62,277 bases of DNA from the NCBI GenBank assembly GCA_044356455.1, contig JBIKWF010000012.1, positions 1-62,277 on the forward strand, in the 5' to 3' direction. Below are positions 1,849 through 21,451 of the stretch, in pieces (the first letter of the stretch is position 1; each line of letters begins with the position of its first letter). A program made the position numbers and the translations under genes. Source of the DNA: Bdellovibrionota bacterium (lineage in GTDB: Bacteria > Bdellovibrionota_C > UBA2361 > JBGSMV01). The notes under the pieces were generated by a model. The model was not told the DNA's origin and ran no database searches. It saw only the letters and a program-made list of their open reading frames with translations.

Positions 1849-1963
1849 CTCGATGGAAGTAACGGATCGCACTCCAATCCTTCCCAAGAAGCCTTAGGGG
1901 CTCTAGACTGTTGAGGAACTTCCGCTACCGATTAACCGACCGCACTTTCAGGAGCAGCTCAGC

Positions 1964-4015: not shown

Positions 4016-4017
4016 TC

Positions 4018-5952: not shown

Positions 5953-6007
5953 AGGCATCCTAGACAACGCTATCACAGACACGGATAGCCGAGCGGATCC
6001 GCGATAT

Positions 6008-6060
6008 AGTTAATATTGATAATTGCATATTAAGCGCATAAGTTAATATTAAGTATTGCA
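6008..6060 (+). promoter_or_regulatory. Two 20-bp direct repeats upstream of the second ATPase (candidate operator)
   Basis: AGTTAATATTGATAATTGCA (6008-6027) and AGTTAATATTAAGTATTGCA (6041-6060), 33-bp period, very AT-rich. Confidence 0.5.
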
Positions 6061-6092
6061 CCCTGTCTGCTACAAATGGCATCATAATTCGC

Positions 6093-7484
6093 ATGTGGCT
6101 AAACAGAAGTAAGCAAAAACAGGCACTTAAGGCAAAGATCCTTAACTTGTCTCGGCAGGTGCTTATGGTTCAAGGTGCCCGGCAGGTTGGGAAGACTTCT
6201 TTAATTCGGGAAGTTCTCGGCGAGCTCAAGGACCACCCGGTGATTGAGGTTAATCTTCTCTACTCAACGTCGTTTACAGCGTCGGGTAAGACGCTTTTTG
6301 GCCGTGACTTTTTTGGAGCTGCTCCCCAGGGAGAAGAGCTGATTGCTAATATAGAGCGGCAGGTTGGGTCGCTCGCGAAACGCGACCGGCAGGTGCTGTT
6401 GTTCGTTGATGAGGTAGATAGGCATCCGCGAGTGATGGAGGCCGTACAGACGCTGGCACAGTTTTCTGACGGACTTAAATGCATTTTCACGGGGTCCGCC
6501 CTTGAGAATCTCAGCACTGAAAATGCAGCCACTGGAAGAAAGGCCTACTTTGACCTGTATCCACTTTCGTTTCTTGAGTATGTCAGTGCAAAAAACGATC
6601 GAGCCCTAGAAGGATTTTTGCAGGAAGCCGACGTGTCGATCGCGGGAGCAGATAGCTCGCTGCACCAGGCCACTGAGTTCATGCATGTGCAGGCGCTCGC
6701 CGCCTTTGAAGAGTACTTAAGATTGGGTGGTATGCCGCGCTTGGTTGCGTCCTATCTTTCGGGGGAGGGAAATGCCGAGACGTTGCGCTATGAGGTGCGG
6801 GACCTTGTACTTAGCATCGAAGAGAACGTAAAGCTGATACTCGGTGATAAGGCTAAACTTTACGAGTACGAGGATGTGCTTAGGCGCTTAGTAAAGTTGT
6901 CTTTAAATACTCTTAGGTTTACGCATCTGCAGGTTAGTCACGCGGGGAGATCTGATGCGAAGCGGTTAGTTTCCAAAACGGTGGCGGCGCGAGTCGCGCA
7001 CAAAGTCCGGCTTTGGGGTGACGAAGGAGATCTTTCTAAGTATCTTTTGTTTGATTGTGGTGTCGCCAACTACCTGCTCGCGGGTAGCGACCTTATGAAC
7101 GCTAAGATTCAGGAGGGCGATCGTGCAATTCTCTTGGAAACTGTAGTGGGGAACTCTCTGGTGAACCAGCTGGGAGTTCGCGAGGATTTATTGTATTGGA
7201 AGTCTGGCAATAAGGCAGAAATTGAGTTCGCCTTCCGCGCGCCCTTTTTTGGTGGGGTCGATGTAAAGTCCAGCAGCACTACCTCTCGCTCTTTGCAAAG
7301 CATGGCATTGTCCGAGCCTGATCTGGATCTGGCGATAGTGGTGACGAAGGGCAAGTTGGCATTTCATGCAGACTTTGAAGCGCGCCTGCCAAGCGCGCGG
7401 GAAGTGAGAAAGATTAAGTTGCTAAAATTGCCCTATTACCTCGTAGACCGGTGCTTGGATCTTGGCCAGCGGGCGCTAGGCTAG
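6093..7484 (+). CDS. Second, divergent AAA_14/DUF4143 ATPase
   Basis: GARQVGKT, LFVDEV, FTGS, TGRK, LYPLSFLEY, GGMPR, YLLFDCG, YWKS..AEIEF..VDVK. Confidence 0.85.
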   Translation: MWLNRSKQKQALKAKILNLSRQVLMVQGARQVGKTSLIREVLGELKDHPVIEVNLLYSTSFTASGKTLFGRDFFGAAPQGEELIANIERQVGSLAKRDRQVLLFVDEVDRHPRVMEAVQTLAQFSDGLKCIFTGSALENLSTENAATGRKAYFDLYPLSFLEYVSAKNDRALEGFLQEADVSIAGADSSLHQATEFMHVQALAAFEEYLRLGGMPRLVASYLSGEGNAETLRYEVRDLVLSIEENVKLILGDKAKLYEYEDVLRRLVKLSLNTLRFTHLQVSHAGRSDAKRLVSKTVAARVAHKVRLWGDEGDLSKYLLFDCGVANYLLAGSDLMNAKIQEGDRAILLETVVGNSLVNQLGVREDLLYWKSGNKAEIEFAFRAPFFGGVDVKSSSTTSRSLQSMALSEPDLDLAIVVTKGKLAFHADFEARLPSAREVRKIKLLKLPYYLVDRCLDLGQRALG

Positions 7485-7708
7485 CCTTTATATCTCACGG
7501 GATCCCTCCGGGTCCATGAGATTACCGTTGGAAATCGGCCATCCGGGCCAATTTCCAACATCGCCCCCTCTCCGTTCGCCACGACAGAGTGTCGAACTGC
7601 GAGGGGGCTCCAAATCGCTCCCGATGGTAGCGATTTGCTAACGCCATCCGGGCGTTAGTTAGCCGGCACTGCTCACAGCCCGTCGGGGCTGTGAGCAGTG
7701 CCGGCTAG
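7481..7708 (+). repeat. Family B multi-hairpin element, copy 1
   Basis: CTAG-CC...GG-CTAG. Consecutive hairpins TCTCACGG/CCATGAGA, GTTGGAAATCGGCC/GGCCAATTTCCAAC, CAAATCGC/GCGATTTG, CTAACGCC/GGCGTTAG, TAGCCGGCACTGCTCACAGCC/GGCTGTGAGCAGTGCCGGCTA. Confidence 0.9.
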
Positions 7709-7821
7709 GAGTGTGTCCCTTAGAAACATAAATCTTCAATTTGGACACAATCCGTAGGTAGGCTGTCCCGTTGCCACCACCGCATGTAGTGGTGAAAACT
7801 TTCCGCGGGACAGACTCCTAG
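7705..7821. mobile_element. Family C MITE-like element, copy 1
   Basis: CTAG-GAGTGTGTCCC...GGGACAGACTC-CTAG terminal inverted repeats. Shares its left CTAG with the B element. Confidence 0.8.
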
Positions 7822-7918
7822 GTTACACTCTTGCTGCAAACCTTCTTTCGTCAGGTGTGTTTACGAGTCAGATATTCTGAGCAGTAGGTCCCCTCGATCG
7901 AGCTCAAGATGGCCATAA

Positions 7919-8056
7919 CTAGGGAATCTTTGAAAAACTCACCTCTGTGTACCTCTGAGTCCTCTGTGGTGAAATTTTCATGAAGAAATTCACCGCAGTG
8001 GACACGGAGGTACACAGAGGTGTCTGAAGAATGAAGGTTTTTCAGGGGTTCCCTAG
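7919..8056. mobile_element. Family A MITE-like element (core variant A2)
   Basis: CTAG-GGAATCTTTGAAAAA...TTTTTCAGGGGTTCC-CTAG with internal long hairpin CTCTGTGGTGAAATTTTCATGAAGAAATTCACCGCAG. Confidence 0.9.
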
Positions 8057-8135
8057 CTGTAACAAGCGGTACTTCGTATGCCTGAGTGATAAGCCACAGT
8101 TGAATAAATGTGGCCATAACAGTAAGGAAATCCTT

Positions 8136-8705
8136 ATGGATGCAGAATTTATCTCTCAGCGACAGACCGGGCCCGGGCCGAGTTGGGCCATGTGGCATTC
8201 GGTTCGAGATCCGCAAAATAGCCGCGCTGCCGCAGCCATTGCGGAGCATACACGCGTCATGCAGGCTCTTTCCAACACAAATCCAACTGTCATGAGTGCA
8301 TGTAAGAATATTTTCGATGCTGAAGGACCGAGAGCTTTAGCTTTTCGTGCGCAGAGGCCTGCGGACGGTTTCGTGGTACTGGCGTATTCAAATAACGTCG
8401 CTATTCTCTATAATATTGATCGAGTCCCTGGGCAGGCGGGTGGGTTAATTAGCTCCGGGAGAGCGTATGCCTCTGGACCTGGAGTCCCTGAGATGCTGAA
8501 AGTCTTCGAAGACGCGGGACGCACCGTGATTCGAATTCAGGCTGAGCGTGCGATCTTGACGGTTGCTGTCGCAGGGAGCGTAGAGTTTGATGCCAAAGCA
8601 GCGCTTTGCGAGATGAATCTACTAAACGCACTCATCTTGATTGAGTCCGGAGAGGGGAGCTTAGACGATCTTAGTCGCCCTGGTTTTAATCCGCGAAGGA
8701 ATTAA
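8136..8705 (+). CDS. Hypothetical protein (189 aa)
   Basis: AAGGA SD before ATG 8136, and open frame. No motif recognised. The upstream ORF extension starts inside the repeat. Confidence 0.6.
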   Translation: MDAEFISQRQTGPGPSWAMWHSVRDPQNSRAAAAIAEHTRVMQALSNTNPTVMSACKNIFDAEGPRALAFRAQRPADGFVVLAYSNNVAILYNIDRVPGQAGGLISSGRAYASGPGVPEMLKVFEDAGRTVIRIQAERAILTVAVAGSVEFDAKAALCEMNLLNALILIESGEGSLDDLSRPGFNPRRN

Positions 8706-8823
8706 GTTGACACCAGAAAACCTTCCAAGATGCCCCCTTGGTCCACCTTTAAATTCTCGATTCTGAATTCTTGCCTGAAGTCTCGAAGAGTCTTGAAGAG
8801 CTCGATAGTGATACATCGAGTGA

Positions 8824-10893
8824 ATGAGCGATTCTCTTTTTGGTTTGCCGATTGTTTCACAAAGCGAAGTAGCTTCAGCTTCTGGGAATGTGGCTTCTTG
8901 GGATTCTCGAGCAGTCAATCTAATCACTAAGCGATTCCTCTCAGGGCATCACATCAGCCTTGAAGAGTGGCTTCGTCGTCTTTCCCATCGCTATGCGTCT
9001 TGTTACCAAGGTAGCGACGCTCGAAAGTGGCAAGAGATCTACTTTCATCTCCTTGCACACCGAATTTTCTTCCCTACAAGCGCGGCCCTCTACAATGCAA
9101 TCCACGGGCAGGGGAGTCTTTCGGGTTGCATGGTGCTCCCCGTTGGTGAAACTGTGGAGGAGATATGTGAGCGGACAGTTCCCCAAGTTCTTGCGGTCCT
9201 AAGGAACGGCATAGGAGTGGGGCTGGATTTGAGCGTTTTGTGCCCGCGTCTTGGGGAAGATCTCAACCCTAGTAGAGCTTTTCCGGGCCCTTGTGAGGTG
9301 TTCTCAAGTATCGCTCTTGCCGCCGACGGCTTGATTGCCTACTCCGGTTTAAAACGCTCGGCATTCATGGGTAGTCTTACTGCGGCACACCCAGACCTTT
9401 TTGAATTCATAAGCCTAAAGGCGACACGTAAACTTCAGAACGTAAATATTTCGATAGCTCTCGATGATGCGTTCGTGAGAGCCCTTAAGAGCGAAACACT
9501 GCTTCCTGTTTCCTTCGGTTATGATGGGCAGTCCCGGCATCTCACTCAAGGCGATCTTACTCGAATGGAGGAACGTGCAGTTCGCCGGTCGGTTGCCGCT
9601 CCGGATCTCGTGCTCAGAGGCACAGAGCTGCATTCACGAACTGCGAGACGCGTAGTCGGAGCGCTTCGAGGGTCGCAGCTCTACTTTGACCCTCGGGCCA
9701 TTCTAGATTTTGCCTCAGAACATGCGCATGCCTCTGGAGACCCTGGAATTCTCAACTTTGCATCAATCAATGCACATAATCCCACTCATCCGAACCATGC
9801 CCTTGATCCGAAGAGCCTTGGAGTAGGGGTCCTGCGCGCAACTACGCCATGTGGTGAACAACCTCTGTTGCCGTATGAAGTTTGTCATCTTGGAAGCATT
9901 AACCTAAATGCTTTCATCTCTGGCGCTCGATTTGACTATGCCTCCTTCAAGCGCTCCGTTCCGCTCATTGTTCGAATGATGGATGACATCGTCTCTTTGA
10001 GCGATCCTGGTATCAAGGAGGTCCGCCAAATTACCGAGGCGAATCGAAAGATAGGAATCGGGTTCATGGGGCTAGCAGATGTGCTTTCCCAGTTAGGCTT
10101 GCCTTACGATTCGGAGGAAGGGCGGTCTTTTGCAGCTCACATTGCAAAGACTCTTCAAGAAGTGGCGCGAGAAGCGTCAGCCGAGCTTGCCTCCGAGCGC
10201 GGTTCATTTATCTCGTGGGAGTCTTCCTCTTACTCTCGAAACGGAGTTGCACCAAGACGGCATGCCACCCTCACTACGATTGCGCCAACTGGCCATCTAT
10301 CCATGCTTGCAGGTTGCTCACCTGCGATTGAGCCATATTTCAAAATCGTTCATCTTAGGAATGCGGCAGGCAAGAATATAGAAGTAGCTACTCACCTTAA
10401 AACCAAGCTTCGTGCTTTAGGCTATTCATTGGATCGTTGGATACTCGATACCCGTCGAAATGATAGTTCGTATGGGTTTGATGGATCTCTTCAAGGCCTC
10501 ACAACAACCCCCGCTTCGCTTCCGCGTAAGCATTGGGATGCACTTGTGCAGTTAAAGCGCATCTTTCCTACGGCACATGAAATCACTCCTCACGACCATC
10601 TCCTTATGGCCCATGCGATTCAGCCTTTTATAGACAATGGCATAAGTAAAACAATAAACCTCCCACATAGTGCCACTGTCTCTGAAGTGCGCTCATTATT
10701 CCTCCGTTCAATCGAGCTTGGCCTTAAGGGCGTGACCGTATTTAGGGATGGATGCTTATCGACTCAGGCTCTTGAGAAGCTCCCCGAGTGCGCAGCCTGT
10801 GGGCGAATTGAGACTCTGACGAAAGGTGAGTGTTCTGGATTCTATTGTGACGTTGCACTTGGTGGATGCGGATACGACGCCTGTTCAATTTAG
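8824..10893 (+). CDS. nrdJ: Divergent class II (adenosylcobalamin-dependent) ribonucleotide reductase homologue
   Basis: SLSGCMVLPV, HPDLFEFI, NVNISI, GDPG, TPCGEQPLLPYEVCHLGSINL, RKIGIGFMG, TTIAPTG, ISKTIN, KGVTVFRDG (no class I Tyr dyad), C-terminal CxxC...C..CGYxxC. Confidence 0.88.
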   Translation: MSDSLFGLPIVSQSEVASASGNVASWDSRAVNLITKRFLSGHHISLEEWLRRLSHRYASCYQGSDARKWQEIYFHLLAHRIFFPTSAALYNAIHGQGSLSGCMVLPVGETVEEICERTVPQVLAVLRNGIGVGLDLSVLCPRLGEDLNPSRAFPGPCEVFSSIALAADGLIAYSGLKRSAFMGSLTAAHPDLFEFISLKATRKLQNVNISIALDDAFVRALKSETLLPVSFGYDGQSRHLTQGDLTRMEERAVRRSVAAPDLVLRGTELHSRTARRVVGALRGSQLYFDPRAILDFASEHAHASGDPGILNFASINAHNPTHPNHALDPKSLGVGVLRATTPCGEQPLLPYEVCHLGSINLNAFISGARFDYASFKRSVPLIVRMMDDIVSLSDPGIKEVRQITEANRKIGIGFMGLADVLSQLGLPYDSEEGRSFAAHIAKTLQEVAREASAELASERGSFISWESSSYSRNGVAPRRHATLTTIAPTGHLSMLAGCSPAIEPYFKIVHLRNAAGKNIEVATHLKTKLRALGYSLDRWILDTRRNDSSYGFDGSLQGLTTTPASLPRKHWDALVQLKRIFPTAHEITPHDHLLMAHAIQPFIDNGISKTINLPHSATVSEVRSLFLRSIELGLKGVTVFRDGCLSTQALEKLPECAACGRIETLTKGECSGFYCDVALGGCGYDACSI

Positions 10894-10901
10894 GAGGAAA
10901 C

Positions 10902-11735
10902 ATGCACCTTTCACACGATAACAATTCCAAGGAAAGTATGTCGGAGCTCTCTCCAGTTGCACCGGGTAATATCACGCCCAAGGCATGGACCCATCTGAGG
11001 GAGTGCCTCTCTCGAGATGGGTGGCTCTTGGGCACCTGCGCATTTGCCCCGCCTAGTAACGCCGAAAAACGAGCCTTTGGCGGCAAGACGTTTTATCGTT
11101 GCCAGAGTCTTCTCGCCCATATGAGTGGATCTGTCGACGACAACCTTGCGAACGCTGGCCTCATTAGGCTGTCCACCATTGAGGAAGCCATAATCCAAAT
11201 TTCTACCACAGAGGAGTCCGGTATGCAGGTTCTGAGGAACTGCAATGTAGGAGGTAAGCCACGATACAGCCTACCTGCAATCCCTGTAGGTACTAGTAAT
11301 GGCTATCGTCTCTATTATCGCCCCGAGGCTGAAGTAATTCACCATACCAAAGGCAAGAGCTGGAATCTTCCTGCGCCCGAACTCATGCTTGTTCCCCAAA
11401 ATGGTCAACATGTTGTCTCTATGTCTCTCACGCCTGAGCACGTACCACTTGAATGTTATGTTAATATTAACCTTCAGCCCACGCCCTACAGTAAAGGTAT
11501 GGAATGGCAGGACTTGGAGCTCGACCTAAAGCTTACGCGTGCCGACCATGGTTGGTATCTCGCTCTGCTTGATGTCGACGAATACGATCAAGCAAACCTG
11601 AGTGCCTCGCTTCGAGCATCTACTGAGGCAGAAATAGCTCGCATCATCGACGCAATTCAGGAAGGGAGGTTTCCGTTCCGCTGCGTGGGATCCTGGCATC
11701 AGATTCTGAAAGACTTTCCCTCGCGAAGTCTATAA
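10902..11735 (+). CDS. DUF402 (FomD/Ntdp-like) nucleotide hydrolase domain protein with N-terminal extension
   Basis: AGGAGG SD. C-terminal YVNIN..P..WQDLELDL..LLDVDEY is the DUF402 signature. Confidence 0.75.
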   Translation: MHLSHDNNSKESMSELSPVAPGNITPKAWTHLRECLSRDGWLLGTCAFAPPSNAEKRAFGGKTFYRCQSLLAHMSGSVDDNLANAGLIRLSTIEEAIIQISTTEESGMQVLRNCNVGGKPRYSLPAIPVGTSNGYRLYYRPEAEVIHHTKGKSWNLPAPELMLVPQNGQHVVSMSLTPEHVPLECYVNINLQPTPYSKGMEWQDLELDLKLTRADHGWYLALLDVDEYDQANLSASLRASTEAEIARIIDAIQEGRFPFRCVGSWHQILKDFPSRSL

Positions 11736-11803
11736 AGTCGAAGTTTTTTAACCTGTAATGGTGCTCTAATTCGATTGAGTAAGATGTGACGGCGGGAGAG
11801 CCC

Positions 11804-12319
11804 TCAGGAGAGTCGCACGCTCTTTCCTTTTACACGTGAGCACAGTTTGCAAAGATGCTTGGGGAAGAGTCGCTTCACCTGTGCCTCAGCTTTGAGGAGT
11901 CCTCGGCCTGCATCTTCTCCTTTGACTGTGACGCGGAGTATGCGCTGTTGACAACAGCGACAGAACCAAACAAAGGCCTCCCTCTCTCCGGGAGAGCGCG
12001 TCCGTTCTACGACTATCCCGAGTGATCGGTCTGGCCTTTCGGGGTAATGAGGTAGCCCAGCTGGAATGAGGAATGACTCTCCCTCCCGGATTGGAATCCT
12101 CTTTATTCTCCCCTGCTTCCAGACATGCAATACCATTTTACCCTTCACCTGAAAAAGGAACTCATCTGAAGGATTGATATGAAAGTGGCTCTTCTTGTTT
12201 GGGCCACTCACTACCAGAACCAGGAGCGAGTGTTCGCGATAAATGATCCCACACTTCTTCTTTGAGAATATTTTTGAATTCTCTCGCAGCCATGTTTTCA
12301 GAGATCTAGGACCTTGCAT
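11804..12319 (-). CDS. 3-hydroxyanthranilate 3,4-dioxygenase-like cupin (divergent)
   Basis: GPN..FH.NP.DEF, PH.P.RP, VVER.R, WFCxxC...CxxC rubredoxin-like site. GGAG SD 7 nt before ATG 12319, overlapping the upstream HAD gene. Confidence 0.85.
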   Translation of the reverse strand: MQGPRSLKTWLRENSKIFSKKKCGIIYREHSLLVLVVSGPNKKSHFHINPSDEFLFQVKGKMVLHVWKQGRIKRIPIREGESFLIPAGLPHYPERPDRSLGIVVERTRSPGEREAFVWFCRCCQQRILRVTVKGEDAGRGLLKAEAQVKRLFPKHLCKLCSRVKGKSVRLS

Positions 12320-13016
12320 TTGCATGCTCCACAAGTTTTATTGGAATCTCAAAAATGGACTCAATTCTATTCTGGGGGGGGATGTCATATTTTCTCCCGG
12401 GGTCAATCAGAAGACAGCGCATGTTAGCATTTTGCGCACCGCAGTAATCATCAGTGTAGGAGTCCCCGATATACAACCCTTCGTGAGGCTGTACCTGAAG
12501 ACGTCTTAGGGATTCGAGGAAAATTGAACTTTCAGGCTTTCGCCTGCCATATTCGACAGATAGGAGAATATCGGAGAACGACTCATGTATCTTCATGGCT
12601 CTTAGATGCCCTAGTACCAAGGGCGCATAGTGAGTATTTGAAATCAGTCCAAGCCGAAATTGTTTTCCCAGCAGAGCGAGCAGTTCAGCTGTCCCGGTTT
12701 TGTAGGTCACGCCCTTATTCCACTCATCGAGAAAAAGAATCACAATTTCGTTCACAAGCTCTTCATGCACCTCAGGTTGATAGGGTGCAAGAATCAGGCG
12801 CACTACCTCACCCATGTGAAACTCTCTGAGAGTAATGACACTCTGTGTGGTGAGCAGGGAGTAAGCTTGTTCCCACTTCGCGATATACGTCTCATAGTCA
12901 TCGGTAAAACCAGCCCGACATAATGCCCGGTAGGAGCCATCATATCGCATAGAGCCAGTTCGATCTTTGTAATCTACGAGAGTTCCGAAGAAATCGAATA
13001 GAAGTGCCTTTGTCAT
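12306..13016 (-). CDS. HAD-superfamily hydrolase (subfamily IA)
   Basis: LLFDFFGTL, LISN, KP, YIGDSYTDD..GA. Confidence 0.9.
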   Translation of the reverse strand: MTKALLFDFFGTLVDYKDRTGSMRYDGSYRALCRAGFTDDYETYIAKWEQAYSLLTTQSVITLREFHMGEVVRLILAPYQPEVHEELVNEIVILFLDEWNKGVTYKTGTAELLALLGKQFRLGLISNTHYAPLVLGHLRAMKIHESFSDILLSVEYGRRKPESSIFLESLRRLQVQPHEGLYIGDSYTDDYCGAQNANMRCLLIDPGRKYDIPPQNRIESIFEIPIKLVEHANARS

Positions 13017-13028
13017 ACTAATTACCCC

Positions 13029-13177
13029 TTAGGGAAACTCTGAAATACCTAGAAATCAATATTCCTCTGTCCTGTTTTTCCTCCGTGTCCTCTGCGTGCC
13101 CCGCGTTATGCAGTATTTGTTAAGTAACGCAGGGGACGCTGAGTACGCAGAGGGGTAGTTTTTCAGAGGTTCGTTAG
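13029..13177. mobile_element. Family A element (variant A3) inserted in the 3' end of the large fusion gene
   Basis: TTAG-GGAAACTCTGAAATA...TTTTTCAGAGGTTCG-TTAG. Non-palindromic TTAG is duplicated. Confidence 0.9.
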
Positions 13178-16100
13178 TCACTAAATCGGAGGTCGATCTT
13201 ATATCTGAAAACCTATTCTCCCGCTGCCATTGCCCTAGGACGCTCTTCCATTTCCCGCAGCGCACAGGGCATTTTCTAACCAATGCGTGATATTTCCCCT
13301 GTTGGTATTCGAGTGCGGCGAATCCTATTTCATTTGTTTCGACTTCAAGACAATTCTGCATGTCAATACCATGGAGCTTCACTCCTGCCTGTTTGAGAAT
13401 ATCGAGGTGCCGCTTCATCACTTCTGGGGCGGTATCATCTGCAAGCACGATTCGGACCCTGGATTCTTTTAAGATTCGCGATATTGACCGAAGCCGAAAC
13501 AGCGAGGCGCCCTCCGTGAAGGTTCCGTGGCCTGCCAGTATATCGGGCTGATGTTTGGAGAGATCCACCAGAATACAGTCTCTGGTTTCATCGAGGACAT
13601 CCTCTAAAGCGCGAAAATAGTCTTTGAAATCAGTCTGGTTTCCCCCGATGGCAGCCATGATGCTGCTGCCAAGCTCGTTTCTCACTCGTATGAGGTAATT
13701 ACGATCCACCCGATGCTGGAATTGGAGAATGACGTCTTTGGGATCGAGGGAGTATGCCGTAAGGATCTCTCGGAGCGTTTCTATCTCATGGCGCCTCTCG
13801 ACGATCACTACCTTCTTTACCCAATCAGGAGTTGCAGAGAGCATAGCAGCAATGCCTGCCCGCTCATAAACGGGAATAGGGAGCGTGGATATGGTCTCCC
13901 CATTCGCAATAACTGGCGCTCTCGTTCGCGTAGCTTGCAGGTACTTTTTTTGATCGTCGTAGACCGCATGAAGACCGATTGCATTAAAGCCGCACCTGAG
14001 CACTGTCGTTAGGTCAATTAGGTTGTGCACCCGGCAGGCTTTCACTATGCCTAAGGTGCCGAGATCGCCGTCTATGCCTGGCAATAGCTTGTGGTGGTTC
14101 AATGGCTGGATTCGCTTGAAGAATCCCTCCAGCCGTGCGGACTTTTGACTTGTTCCCCAGGTGTTAAAAGCGGTCACATACTCGGAAGCTGGCATATAAG
14201 TGAGAGACGATTCCCAGCCGGATGCGAGTTCCTCGCAGGGCTCAGAGCGAAGCCATGAAACTAGATTCTCATAGTTAACCGCTGCAGCGGCGGTATGAAC
14301 AACAGCTCCTGTACGCTGTGCCAGTTGGCTCGCGATAAGGGTAAGCGTGCGAAAGGTCGTAACATTATTGTCGAACAAGAGAACATTTTTCTCTTTGAGA
14401 GAACCAGCTCTCAACGGTGTCTCGAATGGCTTGGGCAGGAAATAGTCGAGCCAGCTTTCTGGCTCGCTGGCTTGCAGCGAAATAATCGCCTCTTTGTCTC
14501 TATGAATACTTAAGGGAAAAGGGACAACCTCCGGTGGTTTTGCGTGAGAGTATAGCTGCGAAAGTACACTACGAAGTGCGTATCCGAGTTCAACGCTTCC
14601 AAAGAGAGGCGTTGCCACATAGGCGTACCGTACCCCACTTGTGTGCATTGCAGCCGCAACATGCAACACCGATCGGGCAATTTGAAAATTGTCGTCGAGC
14701 TCACGCATGGCTTGATGCGGAAAGGGCTCTTTCAAAACGATTCGGACTACAGCCTCCTCTAGCTCTTTTGGTCTATGAAGCGTTTGAGGAGTAGGTTGCC
14801 CCAATAGTAATTGATAGTAGAAATCGGTAGCGGACTCGCACCAGGCACGCAGGTCCCCACGCAGCGCCTCAGCACTCTCATTCTTGTAATGGACAGCTTG
14901 ACGCGACACGCTATTGAGAGCGCTAAAGAGCGCATGCTTGTAGTGGTCAACAACCATGAGCAAAATGAGTCTGGCCGCCTTCGACAGCTTCGACCAAGAC
15001 GCGGGTAAATCGAGTTTTGAAAGAAGTTCGAAGGCTTCTGTGCTAATTGAGAATAAGAAAGCGAATCGTTCAAGGACTGATTCAGAGGAAAGGGAAAGAT
15101 AAGGAGGGAGGCCATAGTAGAAGAGCTTCCCTCTCAGATACGTCCGCCGAGGGGTTCGCGTGATCATCTCCTCAAGATAGCCACAGAAACGGTCATTCAG
15201 AGAAAAACGGTCTGTGAGCTCTCTAAGAGCGTTCTTGAACGCTTGCGTGGGAAGCGAGCAGATCCCAATTGGATCAGAGACGGCATCAAACATCTCATGA
15301 ACTTCACGCATGCCTTTGCACCATTCGTTTTGAGGAAGTGCGACACCGCTATGGCCAGTTTTAAGCATCGTCATAAGACGCTTGCGGTCCAGCTCACCGA
15401 GTAGGAATTTATACCACCCCTTTTGCCCGTCTTCTCGACGAGGAGCAAAAACGGTTCCCCCATGTAACTTAACTTGATTGAGAAGTGCGTGGTTTGCGGG
15501 GTCATCATCCGCAGCGAAAACAATCATCGCTCCTTTCGCGAGCATCAGTTGTGCAACCTGTCGCTTATGTTCCCCAAAACAGTGCCAGGCCTCCCGACAC
15601 CCGTCACTCGAATAGCCAATTCCTGACCCAAGCACTTCGTACCTTACCTCCGTAAGTCCGCACTTTGCGAGAGCGCTCTGAACAACTCCCGCGATGAAGG
15701 GTTCAGCACCCGCACTTAGAAAAAGTACCCTTAGACCTGAACCATAGAGTCGAGAGAGATATCGCAGATACCGAACTGCTCCCTTATAGGGAGGAATCTC
15801 ATTGGCGATGATTCTCCCCGCCGAGTACAGCACCTGCGGTCCTATAGGCTCATTCTCCCCTAGGACGCTTATGTGATTCGCGTGGGCCTTTGCCATCTCT
15901 GGGGACACTGTGGCTGGTAGGAGTGCAAGACTTGCCTTCCTGAACTCCTGGCTGCTGAGGGTCTTAGTGACATACGTCGCGCGGTGGAGCGATCTATACT
16001 CCGTTGCCCTATGTTCGGGAATGAGAAGGTCTCTCTTCAGACAGGCCCAGTGCCATGAAGTTCTTGAAAGGAATACTCTGTCCACATCGAAAATGGCCCA

Positions 16101-16196
16101 CGTTTCACCGCTTCTCACCCCAGCGAGAAACAATTTCAATCGCTCCTCGAAGGAGTTTGGCATAGAGCTGGTTTCTGTGATTGTGGCGCTGCTCAT
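13056..16196 (-). CDS. Fusion protein: HAD phosphatase-like + type I PRTase-like + TrpF-like TIM barrel
   Basis: HAD motifs IFDVD, FLSAG, K, AADDD. PRTase-like ATPLFGSVELG and VLLFDNNVTTFRTL. TrpF-like VKACRVHN...GFNAIGLH, ILQF, ILVD, GIDMQNCLE. ATGA overlap with the upstream gene at 16193-16196. Confidence 0.65.
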   Translation of the reverse strand: MSSATITETSSMPNSFEERLKLFLAGVRSGETWAIFDVDRVFLSRTSWHWACLKRDLLIPEHRATEYRSLHRATYVTKTLSSQEFRKASLALLPATVSPEMAKAHANHISVLGENEPIGPQVLYSAGRIIANEIPPYKGAVRYLRYLSRLYGSGLRVLFLSAGAEPFIAGVVQSALAKCGLTEVRYEVLGSGIGYSSDGCREAWHCFGEHKRQVAQLMLAKGAMIVFAADDDPANHALLNQVKLHGGTVFAPRREDGQKGWYKFLLGELDRKRLMTMLKTGHSGVALPQNEWCKGMREVHEMFDAVSDPIGICSLPTQAFKNALRELTDRFSLNDRFCGYLEEMITRTPRRTYLRGKLFYYGLPPYLSLSSESVLERFAFLFSISTEAFELLSKLDLPASWSKLSKAARLILLMVVDHYKHALFSALNSVSRQAVHYKNESAEALRGDLRAWCESATDFYYQLLLGQPTPQTLHRPKELEEAVVRIVLKEPFPHQAMRELDDNFQIARSVLHVAAAMHTSGVRYAYVATPLFGSVELGYALRSVLSQLYSHAKPPEVVPFPLSIHRDKEAIISLQASEPESWLDYFLPKPFETPLRAGSLKEKNVLLFDNNVTTFRTLTLIASQLAQRTGAVVHTAAAAVNYENLVSWLRSEPCEELASGWESSLTYMPASEYVTAFNTWGTSQKSARLEGFFKRIQPLNHHKLLPGIDGDLGTLGIVKACRVHNLIDLTTVLRCGFNAIGLHAVYDDQKKYLQATRTRAPVIANGETISTLPIPVYERAGIAAMLSATPDWVKKVVIVERRHEIETLREILTAYSLDPKDVILQFQHRVDRNYLIRVRNELGSSIMAAIGGNQTDFKDYFRALEDVLDETRDCILVDLSKHQPDILAGHGTFTEGASLFRLRSISRILKESRVRIVLADDTAPEVMKRHLDILKQAGVKLHGIDMQNCLEVETNEIGFAALEYQQGKYHALVRKCPVRCGKWKSVLGQWQRENRFSDIRSTSDLVTNEPLKNYPSAYSASPALLNKYCITRGTQRTRRKNRTEEY

Positions 16197-17377
16197 GACC
16201 GCGGACACCTCGAATCGCCTGCATAAAGAATTCGCTCGCTTGCAAGACTATAAATGTTGAACCCTTTGCGCACCGCAGGCTCGACTCGAAGCACTCGGAT
16301 GACGGGTGTAATAATTATCTGGCACCGCTGCCCTCTAGAGAGAAAGATATCGCGGAGATGAAAGAGCCGATGCTGACCGACAGGGCTGGAGGGGCCTAGT
16401 ATAAGTGCATGCGTATGTCCGCGTGCTTCGTAACGTTTACCTCCACTGAACGCCTCCCACTCCGGCTCATTCCTTTCATATTTTGAGCCAAAGGCGATAA
16501 GCTGTTGGCCTTCGCTGAGCGGAAAATGTTCCTCCGCACCGGCCTTCTGAGCGTCTTTGAGTGTTAGCATCGCGCTCTCGGGGATCTTACGCAGAACGCG
16601 TCCAACAACTATTGACGAGTGAGGCGACTCTTTTTGGTGCTCAAGGCTGATTTGTATTGAAAACGCCTCTAGTCCGAGGGTGGCCGCGGCTTGAGAGAGG
16701 ATATCAAGTACACTTGCTCTCTCTTCATGCGCTTCAATTTCGAGGAGAATATTCCTCTGCTCCCCTTGTTTCTGAGGTGAGAGCCAAGCGGTATGCGAAT
16801 AGACACTTCGCTGGTCAATCAGTTCCCGATGGCCCTTCTTGGAAAGTGGTACGCGTTCGCTAAATCTACCTCCCGCGGGAATGAATCCACTTTGACTGCG
16901 CGAAACGCCTTTTCCCCCTTCTGCATCTATCAGCGAGTACTCTAGGACTTCTCCGCCTGGATGACCGTCCCGAGGCTTTGAGCCTGATGCTCCGAAGCGC
17001 AAGTAGCTAAGAGAAGTATCGATACACCGCAGTGCCTTAAGAATGGCGAGCACATCAGAATCGTCAAAGAGTATTGCCTTGGCGAATATCAAACTAGCAA
17101 TTCCTTGCATATCTACGATACAGGAGTCGTGTCCACCGAAATCCAAGTGGGGGCTTAGTACATGCTCTGGCTTCAGGCTTTGCAAACGGCGCACTCCCTC
17201 TGTGGCACTCCACGGCTGGCAGGGCACATCGGCGTAACGTCTCTCGAGCGCGTGAAAAAGTTTACTCCCTGACTCGGCGAGATACGTGCATGGTGCGATT
17301 TCAGTGGTCACCCAGGGATCCTGGAGTTTAAAGCCAGGAATTGTTAGCAGGGGACAGTCAAGGTCGCTTAGAAACAT
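16193..17377 (-). CDS. Hypothetical metalloprotein, acetolactate decarboxylase/PPC-like fold suspected
   Basis: C-terminal GHTHALI...FHLRD (HxH..H) preceded by AFSIQI..VVGRV..LIAFG, and an N-terminal GEV segment, in the same order as in AlsD/BudA. Confidence 0.45.
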   Translation of the reverse strand: MFLSDLDCPLLTIPGFKLQDPWVTTEIAPCTYLAESGSKLFHALERRYADVPCQPWSATEGVRRLQSLKPEHVLSPHLDFGGHDSCIVDMQGIASLIFAKAILFDDSDVLAILKALRCIDTSLSYLRFGASGSKPRDGHPGGEVLEYSLIDAEGGKGVSRSQSGFIPAGGRFSERVPLSKKGHRELIDQRSVYSHTAWLSPQKQGEQRNILLEIEAHEERASVLDILSQAAATLGLEAFSIQISLEHQKESPHSSIVVGRVLRKIPESAMLTLKDAQKAGAEEHFPLSEGQQLIAFGSKYERNEPEWEAFSGGKRYEARGHTHALILGPSSPVGQHRLFHLRDIFLSRGQRCQIIITPVIRVLRVEPAVRKGFNIYSLASERILYAGDSRCPRS

Positions 17378-17467
17378 TTGGGTATTTAAATCAGTTGTAT
17401 AATAGTTGTGGGCTCGGTGATTCAGAGGCTGATTAGAAATATCTGGCGGGCGTCCTTCATTGATTGT

Positions 17468-18103
17468 TCACTTGGGACGCCGCTCTATGCCGAGCGTGCG
17501 TAAAGCCTGCAACATGAATTCGAGACGTTCCTCTATCGAACGCACAGGTACGGGCGTAACCTGATAGCCAAGATCCGAGTACACTTCTCCAAGACGCTGT
17601 GTCATTGCTGCTGTTCTACGTGCTTCGTCGGAAGTCCGAATTCCATCTTCGATGAAAGGTAGGGGTTCAAAGAGGAAGACGTGTCGATATCGTGCATTAA
17701 GCTGTGTGCTACGAAGCGCGGATGGATCTAGCTCCGCGAGCTCGTAATACACGATGCTGTCGGGGAGTGCTCTGTCGAAGATGAAGCTCATGCCTTTAGG
17801 GAGTCTGTTCTCGAGAGCGAGCTTCTTTTCCCATATCAGTTCAGAAACGAAATCACCTTTGCTGAAAAGTTCGTCGGCGGTGCACTTTTTGACTGTAAGT
17901 TCCTTTCGGATGACTAAGCGTGCAATTTCGGGCACTACATTGTACCCCAACTCCTTAAGCAGATTGGCTGTGGTGCTCTTTCCCGAACATGGGCCTCCGG
18001 TAAATACAACCCACGGAGGCTGTTGCAAGGCATCTAGGGCAGAGCCTTCCGCAGATCGAGGGGGGAGGTCTCTTCTCTCATTTATTACTTTGGTAGAATT
18101 CAT
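17468..18103 (-). CDS. AAA_28 (NadR/Ttd14-like) P-loop kinase/ATPase
   Basis: VFTGGPCSGKST, VPEIAR, FDRALPD, VFLFEPLP..DGIR. GGAG SD 8 nt before ATG 18103. Confidence 0.85.
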   Translation of the reverse strand: MNSTKVINERRDLPPRSAEGSALDALQQPPWVVFTGGPCSGKSTTANLLKELGYNVVPEIARLVIRKELTVKKCTADELFSKGDFVSELIWEKKLALENRLPKGMSFIFDRALPDSIVYYELAELDPSALRSTQLNARYRHVFLFEPLPFIEDGIRTSDEARRTAAMTQRLGEVYSDLGYQVTPVPVRSIEERLEFMLQALRTLGIERRPK

Positions 18104-18201
18104 CACCATCACTCCGTACAGTTGTGACCGGACATTAGCTGCATCGTCATCCCCAGCCCTTGTATTTCGCTCACGAGCGTGAATCCCTTGAAATATGAGG
18201 G

Positions 18202-18367
18202 CTAACCGTCATGTCTCACGGGATCCCTACGGGTCCGTGAGACTGCGCGTAAAATCCGCCGTCCTGGCGGGTTTTACGCATCGAGCACCTGCGAGCACCG
18301 CAAACATAGCGTCGCCCTCCGGTCGCGATTTGCTAACGCCGTCCGGGCTGTGAGCAGTCGCGGCTAG
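18202..18367 (+). repeat. Family B element, copy 2 (internally deleted)
   Basis: CTAA-CCGTCATGTCTCACGGGATCC...GGGCTGTGAGCAGTCGCGG-CTAG, same hairpin series as the copy at 7481. Confidence 0.85.
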
Positions 18368-18479
18368 GAGCGTGCACCTCAAAAACATGAATGTTCATGT
18401 GGCACGCAACACGCAGATGTCTGTCCCGTTATCAACGCAAAAGGTAGTGGTAGAACCGTTCTGCGGCACAGACTCCTAG
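18364..18479. mobile_element. Family C element, copy 2
   Basis: CTAG-GAGCGTGCACC...GGCACAGACTC-CTAG, colinear with 7705-7821. Confidence 0.75.
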
Positions 18480-18630
18480 GTCAGTTGATGTGTAGCATCA
18501 GAACTTTGCGGAGGCGCGCGTACGCTTCAGTACAGAATTCAGAGCGGCTCACAGAATGAGCGTCTGTAATCAATTAGCGTAAGAGTAAAGATTGGGGTGT
18601 GTTAGGTAGGTGAAGGGGGCCGAGCGTTAG

Positions 18631-19362
18631 TTAGCGAGCATTTTCTATGCGAAGGCGCCGCTGAATCATGACAAAGTCGCGTCGGTTGATGGTGCCTGGA
18701 GGAAGCCAGCCTGAGTCATTCAAAAACTCAAGGGCGGCGTTCTGCCTTTCATCAAGGCTAGGGTAGTTTGCCTTAGCCGGGGCCTGAGGAAATGAATCTC
18801 GAGCGCGGTTTTGGAAGTCCGTGCGCTGTAATGCACTAAAAGCAGCGCGCGGGTCGTAGCCTGCGGCAGCCATGACTGCAATGGCGCGCTGGTCGGCCGC
18901 GAGTTCAATGTTCTTGCGGGCCGAAGCTGAAAGAGTGTCAACTTTAAGATCGGTGTGCCCAAGCTGCTGGTGGGCTCTCTCGTGCGCAAGCACAAAGGCA
19001 AGCTCTGCTTCGTTCGCTACTGCGAGTATCATGCCTTGAGAAATAAGGATTGAGTCTTGATTCGGTGCTAGGGCAACTGGTTTGGCGGAGGCTAAGAGGG
19101 TGAGAGTGGGAAAAAGTTGTGGTGCTTCGCGGGCCGTGCGGTGATGTCGGGTCAAGGTCGCAGAGCTTAGCCTCACCAGTATTCCTTCAAGATATCTTTG
19201 AGTGAGAGGATCTTCGATTACGCCATATTGTTCTTCGAGAAGACGAGCCGAGATAAGGCTTGGCGAAGGTTTGGCGCTGCATGCGACTAAGAAGGAAGTG
19301 CTGCACAGCAGGAGAAGGAGCCGTTTACAGAGATAAATGGTGCCACGGGTTTGAGCGGTCAT
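18631..19362 (-). CDS. M48-family zinc metallopeptidase lipoprotein
   Basis: Lipobox FLVAC, EAELAFVLAHERAH (HExxH), ELAAD, AGYDP, YPS..ER. Confidence 0.85.
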   Translation of the reverse strand: MTAQTRGTIYLCKRLLLLLCSTSFLVACSAKPSPSLISARLLEEQYGVIEDPLTQRYLEGILVRLSSATLTRHHRTAREAPQLFPTLTLLASAKPVALAPNQDSILISQGMILAVANEAELAFVLAHERAHQQLGHTDLKVDTLSASARKNIELAADQRAIAVMAAAGYDPRAAFSALQRTDFQNRARDSFPQAPAKANYPSLDERQNAALEFLNDSGWLPPGTINRRDFVMIQRRLRIENAR

Positions 19363-19510
19363 GTGCCTGGCCTGATTGCTTGCTCCAGCGAGCCTAGCCC
19401 GCCCTCGCCAGTCGGGGAATCCCTGATGAATTACGAGACATTGTCGGAGTCGCATCGAGTCTCAATTCCCTTTTACTCACAAAGTTCCCTTTCCTAAGCC
19501 TTTCAGCTAC

Positions 19511-19648
19511 CTAGGGAACCTCTGAAAAACCTCGATATTTTATTTTTTTCTCTCCGTGATCTTTGTGTCCTCTGTGGTTTTTCAACAATTTAAATCAACC
19601 ACAGAGGGCACAGAGTTCACAGAGCAGACTTTTTCAGAGCTTCCCTAG
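19511..19648. mobile_element. Family A element (variant A1)
   Basis: CTAG-GGAACCTCTGAAAAA...TTTTTCAGAGCTTCC-CTAG. Confidence 0.92.
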
Positions 19649-19769
19649 AATAACCTTTCGGTAACATTCAATTTGGCCCAATTCGGTCCCCGGCAAGAAG
19701 TCACGAGAGAGCTCGAAGGCGTCATAACTCCTCTGTCTTTCTTGGTTCTATTCTTTTTTGGGGGTTTCT

Positions 19770-20213
19770 ATGGTTTTTGCGAGGGCTATTTTCACCGGAG
19801 TTTTTTCCCTTCTTCTCTGCGCGCCCGCTTTCGCTCAGCAGGTTGCAGCTGCGAAAAAAACCATCGCCGTTTGGAACGTCGGGCTTGAGCTCGACATAGG
19901 AGACTGTGATGAGAATGAGGTCACCTATCTCAGAAACAAAGAAACGCTCTCAGGTAACATAACCTTCTATGTCGCTAAGAACGGTAAGATTGAGGCTTCT
20001 GGACTTCCCGGTCGCTCGAAGTATGTCGGTTCGATCAAGGGCCGAAAATTCGTGGGGACTATTGAGGGCGGAAGTTCCGGCAGAATAAAGTCCAAAGAAA
20101 TTCTCACCATCAGCCGCTTCAAAGCGCGTCAGTCCGATGTAACCATTAAAGGAACAGCGCTCGTGAATGGTGTGCGATGCTCTTATGAGTATTTCGGCCC
20201 TGGCGCTCAGTAA
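19770..20213 (+). CDS. Secreted hypothetical protein
   Basis: Sec signal ending APAFA|QQ, beta-rich mature region with two Cys. Confidence 0.65.
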   Translation: MVFARAIFTGVFSLLLCAPAFAQQVAAAKKTIAVWNVGLELDIGDCDENEVTYLRNKETLSGNITFYVAKNGKIEASGLPGRSKYVGSIKGRKFVGTIEGGSSGRIKSKEILTISRFKARQSDVTIKGTALVNGVRCSYEYFGPGAQ

Positions 20214-20221
20214 CGCGGCTT

Positions 20222-20290
20222 CCCTTTCCCTTGGTGTTCTTTGTGTTAAAAAACAACCACTAAGAACACAAAGAGCACTGAGGAAAGGGG
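20222..20290. repeat. Family E hairpin between convergent genes, may act as terminator
   Basis: CCCTTTCC..TGGTGTTCTTTGTGTT/AACCACTAAGAACACAAAGAGCACTGAGGAAAGGG. Confidence 0.55.
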
Positions 20291-20299
20291 CTCTTTCTG

Positions 20300-21451
20300 T
20301 TAGGCCCGCTCAATGATAGTCGCTATCCCCATGCCAAGCCCAATACACATGGTAATAAGAGCGTAGCGACCTTTGGTTCTTTCAAGCTCATCAAGTGCGG
20401 TGCCAATGAGCATGGCTCCTGTGGCGCCGAGGGGATGCCCTAAGGATACCCCGCCTCCGTTTACATTGACGCGCGCGGGGTCAATCCCGAGCTCCTGGAT
20501 GGTGACCAGCGGGACAGGAGCAAACGCTTCATTTATTTCCCAAAGATCGATGTCATTCTTCGAGAGCCCGGCCCGCTTGAGTGCGAGGGTGCTTGCTGCA
20601 ATTGGTCCCGTGAGCATGATGCGCGGGGCTGAGCCCACTGCGATTGTGCTTACAATGCGGGCGCGCGGTTTTAGGTTAAGGGCCTTAGCTTTGTCTGCAC
20701 TCGCGAGCAAGAGAGCCGCTGCGCCGTCGACAATTGCGGAGGCATTCCCGGCGCTAATTACTCCTGTATCACTAAAGGCGGCCTTTAACTTTGCGAGGCC
20801 TTCAATGGTGGTGTCTCCACGCACTGTGTCGTCTTCGCTGAGGGACAGCGTTTCCCCGGTTTCTGTTCGATAGGGCACCGGTATCAGACTTCGCTTAAAG
20901 CGGCCTTCAGCGAGCGCCTTCTTTGCTTTCATCTGAGAGTGGTAAGCGAACTCGTCGGCTTGGCTGCGGGTGATCGAGTACGTTTGGCAGAGGATCTCCG
21001 CGGCCATGCCTTGCTGCACTAAATCAGGGTAGTGCGAGAGTAACAGCGGGCTGGTTTCGCCGCTGATGTCGCTAAACATCTGACAGCGTGTCATGTGTTC
21101 TAATCCACCGCTCACCACGAGGTCGTATGCTCCGCTTTGTACGCCTTGTGCGGCAAAGTTGGTGGCTTGTTGTCCGCTTCCGCAAAGACGGTTGATAGTC
21201 GTTGCGGGGACGGTAATTGGCCAGCCTGCTGCGAGAACGCTTGCACGTGCTACGCACCAGCCTTGCTCTCCGGTTTGCGTGACGCAGCCCATGGCCACAT
21301 CCTCAACTTGGTCGAGGGGAATTTTGTTCCGCTCCTTGAGCGCATTAAGGGGGTAGGTGAGAAGGTCTACGGGATGAACTGAGGTGTATTTCCCCTTCCT
21401 GCGTGCACGAGGGGTTCTCACCGCGTCAATGATGAATGCTTCGCGTGACAT
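20300..21451 (-). CDS. Thiolase (acetyl-CoA C-acyltransferase)
   Basis: NRLCGSG, NEAFA, GHPLGATG, MCIGLGMG. Confidence 0.95.
   Translation of the reverse strand: MSREAFIIDAVRTPRARRKGKYTSVHPVDLLTYPLNALKERNKIPLDQVEDVAMGCVTQTGEQGWCVARASVLAAGWPITVPATTINRLCGSGQQATNFAAQGVQSGAYDLVVSGGLEHMTRCQMFSDISGETSPLLLSHYPDLVQQGMAAEILCQTYSITRSQADEFAYHSQMKAKKALAEGRFKRSLIPVPYRTETGETLSLSEDDTVRGDTTIEGLAKLKAAFSDTGVISAGNASAIVDGAAALLLASADKAKALNLKPRARIVSTIAVGSAPRIMLTGPIAASTLALKRAGLSKNDIDLWEINEAFAPVPLVTIQELGIDPARVNVNGGGVSLGHPLGATGAMLIGTALDELERTKGRYALITMCIGLGMGIATIIERA

Follow-up and report, generated by a model that had tools for sequence, protein, structure and literature searches.

Why would a ribonucleotide reductase (RNR) homologue be encoded side by side with a putative phosphoribosyltransferase (PRT), a decarboxylase-like protein and several predicted phosphohydrolases, in a genome that also encodes a class I RNR? 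This question is raised by seven tightly packed genes on a 62,277-nucleotide stretch of DNA from a Bdellovibrionota bacterium (contig JBIKWF010000012.1, assembly GCA_044356455.1), the whole of which we refer to as the window. We sort these genes into two cassettes plus a relative of 3-hydroxyanthranilate dioxygenase (3-HAO). Cassette A comprises an NrdJ-like protein, a DUF402 protein, an AAA_28 P-loop kinase-like protein and a HAD-IA hydrolase resembling nucleotidases, and cassette B comprises a large fusion, which we call the tri-domain protein, and a 394-residue protein, p394. An earlier note on this DNA had proposed that the set makes a non-canonical deoxynucleoside or deoxynucleotide by a pathway built around a repurposed class II RNR. 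We find the logic of that pathway plausible. Our preferred but tentative reading, to which we give slightly less than an even chance, is that the insertion carrying these genes encodes one pathway, in which cassettes A and B are joined to make a non-canonical, nucleoside-like small molecule derived from phosphoribosyl pyrophosphate (PRPP). The product would probably be a secondary metabolite.

The NrdJ-like protein belongs to a clade without the active-site asparagine

RNRs are regarded as single-purpose enzymes for making DNA precursors, and sequences that lack the active-site Asn are routinely discarded as non-functional. The NrdJ-like protein of the window is such a sequence. It passes the TIGR02504 model by a narrow margin (418 bits against a cut-off of 399.95), and its best match in the PDB is the NrdJ of Thermotoga maritima (1xje, E 1.5e-63). 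In a homologue search it fell into a clade of about 45 clusters, which scored 380-703 bits at 40-49% identity, compared with 341 bits for the best canonical NrdJ. A quick IQ-TREE analysis separated this clade from canonical NrdJ with a Shimodaira-Hasegawa-like approximate likelihood ratio (SH-aLRT) support of 100. In an alignment of 28 sequences (23 from the clade and 5 canonical), the residue preceding the catalytic Pro-Cys is Asn in 5 of 5 canonical proteins, compared with Thr in 19 and Ala in 4 of the 23 clade members. The window protein reads TTPCGE where canonical NrdJ reads TNPCGE, and the N-P-C-E...C signature is replaced by T-P-C-E...C. One preprint gives this signature as N437, P438, C439, E441 and C462 in E. 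coli numbering, counts the Asn among four residues held to be essential and excludes sequences without it (bioRxiv 10.1101/2021.01.20.427478).

The other catalytic residues are kept. Three Cys and the Glu are invariant in the clade alignment, the second redox cysteine (equivalent to E. coli C225) is present as C102 in 28 of 28 sequences and aligns with the lsaCfv motif of 1xje, and the C-terminal tail of the window protein is rich in Cys. Relative to class II NrdJ such as 1xje, the clade has the same ten-stranded barrel family (PF02867), P-C-G-E loop, redox cysteines and Cys-rich tail. It differs in having Thr or Ala for Asn (23 of 23), in an insertion of about 55 residues and in its fusion with, or adjacency to, DUF402 or kinase genes; the window protein is, moreover, encoded in addition to a class I RNR of the same genome. 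Further clade changes are GGGTG to GIGVG, APTGT to APTGH and CN to CH. TSCPD matched none of the 45 clade clusters, nor the window protein. The N-terminal all-alpha domain, PF00317, had no match in the window protein and none in the precomputed domains of 43 of the 45 clusters. Because the genome encodes a PduO-type adenosyltransferase and B12-binding proteins, adenosylcobalamin is a plausible cofactor for the NrdJ-like enzyme.

DUF402 and kinase genes accompany the clade elsewhere

Four clade clusters are natural fusions of an NrdJ-like protein with DUF402, one of them named from a metagenome-assembled genome (MAG) of Chlamydiae. DUF402 enzymes are described as hydrolysing nucleoside di- and triphosphates to monophosphates, and the Ntdp/FomD family is described as also hydrolysing CMP conjugates to the monophosphate (PMC11602121). 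The window protein shares the DUF402 domain with Ntdp of S. aureus and FomD of the fosfomycin pathway, and differs from them in an N-terminal extension of about 120 residues and in being coupled (in relatives, fused) to an RNR-like enzyme. With phmmer, the AAA_28 and DUF402 proteins found only chance-level matches in the PDB. Our literature searches found no paper pairing DUF402 with an RNR, and nothing relevant on class II RNRs in nucleoside biosynthetic gene clusters or on class II 'ribonucleotide reductase-like' proteins. One partial clade cluster (P0063) carries a precomputed AAA_28 match, which would link the NrdJ-like and AAA_28 proteins at the level of families only.

Neighbourhoods of clade RNRs were available on five short metagenome contigs (L019-L023, 4-10 kb). 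On L019, the RNR is accompanied by a purine-type PRT and two dTMP-kinase-like genes, which appears to be a different 'base to deoxynucleotide' set around a clade RNR. L020 has a dNK-like kinase nearby and a fused DUF402, and L021 has DUF402 nearby and, upstream, a HAD-IA fragment 38% identical to the HAD-IA hydrolase of the window. The neighbours on L022 are GalU and transposases. On L023 (3883-9556), a gene for a 1072-residue STAND/NACHT-TPR NTPase overlaps the start of the NrdJ-like gene of the clade, and DUF402 comes next; cassette A may here stand in the context of a conflict system. The partners that the earlier scheme requires thus recur beside relatives of the NrdJ-like protein on unrelated contigs: a PRT with dTMP-kinase-like genes on L019, a dNK-like kinase on L020, and DUF402 adjacent or fused on L020, L021, L023 and in the four fused clusters. 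By its distinct clade, the DUF402 fusions and these neighbourhoods, cassette A is conserved on its own.

The L019 region (1314-8106) also encodes a class II aldolase-like protein, an NTP_transf_5 nucleotidyltransferase and a carrier protein, and adjoins a transposase.

Cassette B is predicted to pair a tri-domain enzyme with a homologue of zinc decarboxylases

Neither cassette B protein matched any Pfam or NCBIfam family, Pfam even at E values up to 10, and profiles gave no useful PDB match for either. The AlphaFold model of the tri-domain protein has a predicted local distance difference test (pLDDT) score of 85, and suggests that the protein folds as a HAD domain, a PRT-like domain and a TrpF-like domain. 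Residues 19-258 form the HAD fold (VIA Z 14.8 to 3m1y_B, over residues 20-257), in which the DxDxT motif (D41 and D43), the Lys K215 and the DD motif (D234 and D235) are invariant. Residues 704-980 best match the phosphoribosylanthranilate isomerase PRAI/TrpF (1nsj) in VIA, at Z 18.8 and a root-mean-square deviation of 2.4 over 200 of 205 residues; the next barrels outside tryptophan synthesis score about 14. An hhalign comparison with 14 TrpF sequences of relatives agrees (Prob 85.8, E 5.4e-6) and pairs KxC with KVC and LlD with LFD, the Cys and Asp positions that we take to be catalytic in TrpF. PF00697, the TrpF family, did not match the protein at E values up to 10. For the part in between (residues 270-700), the best Atlas cluster is named 'Phosphoribosyltransferase' at 0.89, JGI names the relative P0018 HPRT/PRAI, and the loop corresponding to DDxxxSG of HPRT reads DNNVTT. 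The description of this protein as a HAD-PRTase-TrpF-like fusion, made from the sequence alone, is borne out for its two ends, while the middle assignment is weak and is weighed below.

The model of p394 (pLDDT 88) matches human C11orf54/PTD012 (1xcr_A; 289 of 313 residues, Z 23.7) and, at Z 15-16, acetolactate decarboxylases (ALDC). By its fold, p394 is thus homologous to two zinc decarboxylases, C11orf54 and ALDC. The HxH..H motif that had been noticed in the sequence proved to be conserved, with H321, H323, H336 and H340 invariant in 12 of 12 sequences. It resembles the zinc ligands of C11orf54, an equivalence suggested by the motif. C11orf54 has recently been described as a zinc-dependent beta-keto-L-gulonate decarboxylase with zinc histidines H266, H268 and H278 (PMC12337341). 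Fold and motif are shared with C11orf54 and ALDC; p394 differs in its low identity (9%), in matching neither Pfam nor PDB profiles, in an additional beta domain at the N terminus (about 40-80 residues) and in its pairing with the tri-domain enzyme.

Both families are small. The tri-domain protein has 15 related clusters among 5.8 billion, and an exhaustive profile search of 1.84 billion proteins gave 75 representatives of the p394 family, 49 of them at E 1e-30 or better; a word-based search with p394 alone had found one relative. Two of the representatives are informative fusions of p394: P0164 joins it to the HAD-PRT part of the large protein, and P0172 to an HD_3 phosphohydrolase.

A profile scan of 185,579 species genomes recovered 15 loci for the tri-domain protein, where a scan of genome contigs with the single sequence had returned no match. 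The hosts are a Bdellovibrionales MAG, Micavibrio, Streptomyces (on the chromosome and on a mobilizable plasmid), Bacillus pfraonensis and several Clostridia. By tblastn, the p394 gene adjoins the tri-domain gene in 12 of 14 evaluable loci from four phyla; L005 and the short locus L014 lack it, and L018 is cut at a contig end. Among the further neighbours, a Cof-type HAD occurs in Firmicutes as well as on the Streptomyces plasmid, and Streptomyces also has a PfkB kinase and an MFS efflux pump of the Cmx/CmrA type; on the plasmid of Streptomyces sp. NBC_00984 the set comprises Cof-HAD, p394, fusion, PfkB and MFS genes. Nonribosomal peptide synthetase (NRPS) modules are present in 3 of 11 annotated loci (Firmicutes), and NUDIX, Ham1, His_Phos_1 and YfbR-like HD hydrolases and integrases or transposases are found as well. 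The many nucleotide hydrolases of 'house-cleaning' type near cassette B, and the efflux pumps there, would fit a toxic nucleotide analogue. Because cassette B lies beside an efflux pump on a Streptomyces plasmid and beside NRPS genes in Firmicutes, it may encode a so-far unseen family of secreted metabolites. By these distributions, the tri-domain protein and p394 are the conserved core, kept independently, and the RNR is an add-on to it. The idea of a pathway built around the RNR is not supported by this comparison, in which 13 of the 14 other loci hold the core with no clade RNR nearby.

Three of these loci have features of their own. In the Micavibrio MAG (L016, 4154-20555), cassette B (NUDIX, p394 and the fusion) shares an island with genes for a tyrosine integrase, a primase of the DUF927/Toprim type, two helix-turn-helix regulators and an EgtD-like methyltransferase. 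In a Clostridiaceae MAG (L008, 10016-12922), the fusion gene is split between its PRT-like and TrpF-like parts, and in a Clostridia MAG (L015, 13758-14976) the p394 gene is present as two open reading frames (ORFs); each may be a natural split form or a frameshift.

Cassettes A and B occur together in two genomes of the phylum

Among 124 genomes of the phylum, a clade RNR profile and a p394 profile each matched two, and these were the same two: the genome of the window (G000) and G035, from the same order and another family, whose contig is the locus of the Bdellovibrionales MAG (L004). The MAG set comprises AAA_28 (38.6% identical to the window protein), DUF402, NrdJ-like, p394, fusion and 3-HAO genes, with a YfbR-like HD protein (HD_3) in place of HAD-IA. 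Gene order differs between the two genomes, and the cluster proteins are 33-47% identical, compared with 59% for UvrC and 69% for the thiolase. Because the order has changed and identity is this low, the pairing has lasted through a long divergence. In the window, moreover, the minus-strand unit interleaves the A-type genes for AAA_28 and HAD-IA with cassette B genes. The co-occurrence that the earlier note had proposed as a check holds in part: the set recurs once, rearranged, in a MAG of the same order, and cassettes A and B are apart in nearly all other places.

The cluster is an insertion, probably acquired horizontally, with divergent second copies

The genes for UvrC, an M48-like protein and a thiolase follow one another directly in G067, a genome of the same genus, whereas in the window 12.7 kb separates uvrC from the other two. 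Nucleotide similarity to G067 (blastn) covers 2103-5543 of the window and resumes at 20305, and a 256-residue ORF of G067 is 38% identical to the M48-like protein encoded at 18631-19455. The insertion, which contains an AAA_14/DUF4143 ATPase gene and the cluster, has a slightly lower GC content (0.48-0.515). The cluster is not present in the same-genus genome or in three genomes of the same family. G067 lacks the insertion, and the clade RNR and the p394 family each occur in just the same two of the 124 genomes of the phylum, which marks the cluster as foreign and accessory.

The separate canonical RNR and kynurenine pathway that had been proposed as a check are both present: class I NrdA (1562 bits, cut-off 1350), a canonical kynureninase/3-HAO/TDO cluster on contig 207, and nadC, with NadA as well. 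The genome has NadA in addition to a complete kynurenine route to quinolinate. The statement that kynU, kmo, nadC and trp genes are missing from the window holds for kynureninase and nadC, and also for TDO, whose matches in this genome all lie on other contigs. With class I NrdA, the kynurenine cluster and nadC encoded elsewhere, the cluster does not duplicate housekeeping functions; its RNR and 3-HAO are divergent second copies. We considered the extra 3-HAO as a substitute for a missing aspartate route to quinolinate, and dropped this idea since NadA is present. PF00697 had no match in the genome, which is 93% complete; of the 26 genomes searched, a set that includes this one, 15 have a match.

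The 3-HAO copy in the window scores about 116.5 bits with the Pfam 3-HAO model, compared with 208 bits for the copy on contig C207, and lies under both NCBIfam equivalog cut-offs (139.3 against 220 and 131.6 against 145.95). It keeps the His/Glu/His metal (iron) ligands and the positions of Arg99 and Glu110, and has Lys at the position of Arg47, these three being what we take to be the substrate residues and their numbering. The copy in the MAG has Arg at the Arg47 position, so the Lys is not common to both. The RNR, 3-HAO and PRT domain had all been said to deviate at substrate motifs. This is correct for the RNR (TTPCGE) and the PRT loop (DNNVTT), and only partly so for 3-HAO, where Arg47 to Lys is the single change.

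A possible pathway and its alternatives

We infer every chemical step of the proposed pathway, and likewise the step order, the cofactor and a substrate shared by cassettes A and B. The PRT-like domain would couple an amine or heterocycle to PRPP, using a precursor that the 3-HAO paralogue may make or process in this genome, and the TrpF-like domain would isomerise the product. As a zinc enzyme, p394 would remove a carboxylate via an enediolate, and the HAD domain of the fusion would take off a phosphate. The AAA_28 kinase would then phosphorylate the cassette B compound, and the NrdJ-like protein, a B12-type radical enzyme, would deoxygenate or dehydrate the sugar at the di- or triphosphate level; alternatively, the Asn-less site may carry out chemistry other than 2'-reduction. 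DUF402 would cut the NrdJ-like product back to the monophosphate and thereby keep it out of the dNTP pool, and HAD-IA would release the nucleoside. In a more far-reaching version, the Asn-less clade would be an active family of B12 radical enzymes, diverted from making DNA precursors to tailoring non-canonical nucleotides by deoxygenation or another dehydration, with DUF402 as a built-in product phosphatase. Here it would act on a new PRPP-based scaffold, supplied by the HAD-PRT-TrpF protein and a C11orf54-type decarboxylase, and a new natural product resembling a deoxynucleoside would result. We consider this version less likely than not.

Several points weigh against a single pathway. Its main weakness is chemical: a true PRAI-type Amadori step would leave a 1-deoxyribulose in open-chain form, not a compound that one would readily expect an RNR to accept, and by opening the ribose ring the TrpF-like domain would fit poorly with a simple order of base, PRPP, kinase and RNR. 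The PRT-like assignment itself is weak, with an hhalign match to the PRPP loop of HPRT at Prob 58.7 and E 9.5e-5 over 42 columns. Because the missing Asn is treated as essential in the field, the NrdJ-like protein could have no activity or catalyse a different reaction. By BLASTP, the AAA_28 part of P0063 is not similar to the AAA_28 protein of the window, and the insertion in the window contains no exporter. Beyond the 13 of 14 other cassette B loci that have no clade RNR nearby, clade RNRs were absent, at E 1e-40 or better, from 5 of 5 cassette B genomes searched, an empty answer that shows little, and cassette B was absent from 5 of 5 of the clade-RNR metagenome contigs, which are short.

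It is accordingly conceivable, although on balance we consider it unlikely, that two unrelated accessory cassettes lie side by side in a recombination-prone spot with no common intermediate, cassette B making its own secreted sugar- or nucleoside-like product and cassette A being a separate nucleotide-modifying or salvage unit. That each cassette is conserved alone, that Amadori chemistry is unsuited to an RNR substrate, that the insertion carries an unrelated PDC-S01-like ATPase and that the cluster is bracketed by a repeat found dispersed in the genome (51 matches) would all be expected of such neighbours. Chance proximity accounts less well for the adjacency of A and B in both phylum genomes that have either (2 of 124 each), for a pairing kept through a change of order at 33-47% identity, and for A-type and B-type genes interleaved in one packed minus-strand unit. 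A role in conflict is less probable again: the cluster, or at least cassette A, would be an anti-phage system that makes a modified or chain-terminating deoxynucleotide or depletes nucleotides on infection. The patchy, island-like distribution, the transposases or integrases flanking several loci, the STAND NTPase directly upstream of the NrdJ-like and DUF402 genes on L023 and the PDC-S01-like gene adjoining the cluster are in keeping with defence. However, none of eight cluster proteins (the seven genes and the ORF at 8031-8705) matches PADLOC, no clade RNR was found among 50,697 phage records, where the best match was 30% identical and to a canonical NrdJ, and the neighbours of cassette B look biosynthetic or export-like (NRPS, MFS efflux pump, sugar kinase). 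Very improbable, finally, is ordinary housekeeping by a back-up B12-dependent RNR and genes of de novo NAD synthesis. The TIGR02504 score just over its cut-off and the intact metal ligands of 3-HAO are what this account has in its favour, and it must contend with the clade-wide loss of the active-site Asn, the absence of the cluster from same-genus and same-family genomes, the canonical NrdA, 3-HAO, TDO, kynureninase, nadC and NadA encoded elsewhere, and a 3-HAO copy below both equivalog cut-offs.

Relation to known systems

The preferred reading, a joint pathway of cassettes A and B, follows the logic of known nucleoside-analogue clusters. Pentostatin and coformycin are made from PRPP with a HisA-type Amadori step, and oxetanocin with an HD phosphohydrolase and a B12 radical enzyme; a PRPP-derived scaffold, an isomerase, a radical B12 enzyme, phosphohydrolases and efflux are the elements in common. 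As far as tested, the enzymes themselves are not homologous to those of the window. We know of no described cluster with an RNR homologue as a dedicated tailoring enzyme. Cassette B can also be compared with the TrpD-TrpF-TrpC segment of tryptophan synthesis (phosphoribosyl transfer, Amadori rearrangement and decarboxylative ring closure), with which it shares the combination of a PRT-like domain, a PRAI fold and a separate decarboxylase-type enzyme. It differs in having no Pfam PRAI or Pribosyltran match, a PRT-like domain whose loop resembles type I and not TrpD, a decarboxylase of the C11orf54/ALDC fold in place of the TrpC barrel, and a fused HAD phosphatase domain.

Both halves of the cluster have consequences beyond this locus. 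An Asn-less clade that is conserved, retains its other catalytic residues, is fused to DUF402 and is linked to kinases would make the notion of an RNR with another job directly testable. In cassette B, a three-domain enzyme is combined with a bacterial relative of human C11orf54, a decarboxylase whose function was established only recently; the family libraries recognise neither of the two proteins. The small size of both cassettes allows them to be expressed and assayed.

Layout of the locus and flanking features

The seven ORFs lie where the earlier note had placed them, with the ORF list and the family scans in agreement (Table 1). They form two convergent, tightly packed units. On the plus strand, the NrdJ-like and DUF402 genes overlap by 28 nt; the five minus-strand genes are ordered AAA_28, p394, tri-domain protein, HAD-IA and 3-HAO-like. 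The tri-domain protein may start at 16208 (GTG, 1050 residues) or at 16163 (ATG, 1035 residues, as in its database cluster). The ORF upstream of the NrdJ-like gene is doubtful as a gene: it has no Pfam, NCBIfam or PADLOC match and no homologue in the other cassette B loci. A promoter and terminator scan gave nothing above shuffled expectation, and an Rfam scan of 5800-20400 found no B12 riboswitch, only sub-threshold miRNA-like hairpin matches.

Table 1. Positions of the cluster genes and surrounding features in the window.
Feature	Position	Strand	Remarks
NrdJ-like (RNR-like), 689 aa	8824-10893	+	Cassette A; PF02867, E 7.5e-79
DUF402 (Ntdp/FomD family), 289 aa	10866-11735	+	Cassette A; Pfam 30.5 bits against cut-off 23.9, residues 171-240
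3-HAO-like, 176 aa	11804-12334	-	Pfam 3-HAO, E 1e-33
HAD-IA hydrolase, 236 aa	12306-13016	-	Weak similarity to YjjG-type nucleotidases
Tri-domain protein (fusion), 1050 aa	13056-16208	-	Cassette B; predicted HAD, helical linker, PRT-like domain and PRAI/TrpF-like TIM barrel
p394, 394 aa	16193-17377	-	Cassette B; predicted C11orf54/alpha-acetolactate-decarboxylase fold, HxH...H motif
AAA_28 P-loop kinase-like, 214 aa	17468-18112	-	First gene of the minus-strand unit; Pfam, E 2.6e-31
AAA_14/DUF4143 ATPase	6093-7484	+	Pfam; inside the insertion, outside the cluster
Doubtful ORF, 224 aa	8031-8705	+	Upstream of the NrdJ-like gene; Atlas model pLDDT 0.38
Dispersed repeat, left copy	7479-7823	+	Direct-repeat match to right copy
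Dispersed repeat, right copy	18200-18481	+	Direct-repeat match to left copy
Insertion relative to G067	5953-18630	.	blastn and comparison of flanking genes

The AAA_14/DUF4143 ATPase matches PDC-S01, a candidate single-gene defence system in PADLOC, at E 1.2e-41. The cluster is bracketed by two copies of a repeat, in which direct repeats D1-D3 and D10 of the left copy match the right copy at 77-93%. We considered these repeats of about 300 nt as attachment (att) sites and dismissed the idea, because they belong to a dispersed intergenic family of about 230-350 nt with 51 matches across the genome at 75-96% identity (from 263 first-look candidates). Two further copies lie in the window at 32925-33185 and 49166-49393, and the left copy contains a perfect hairpin with 22-nt arms (7660-7707). 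The family looks like a miniature inverted-repeat transposable element or a repetitive extragenic palindromic element. In addition, three related long imperfect palindromes occupy intergenic positions at both edges of the insertion region (7940-8022, 19552-19624 and 20222-20290); their arms of 26-37 nt share a CTCTGTGG-like core, and their Rfam matches are sub-threshold and miRNA-like.

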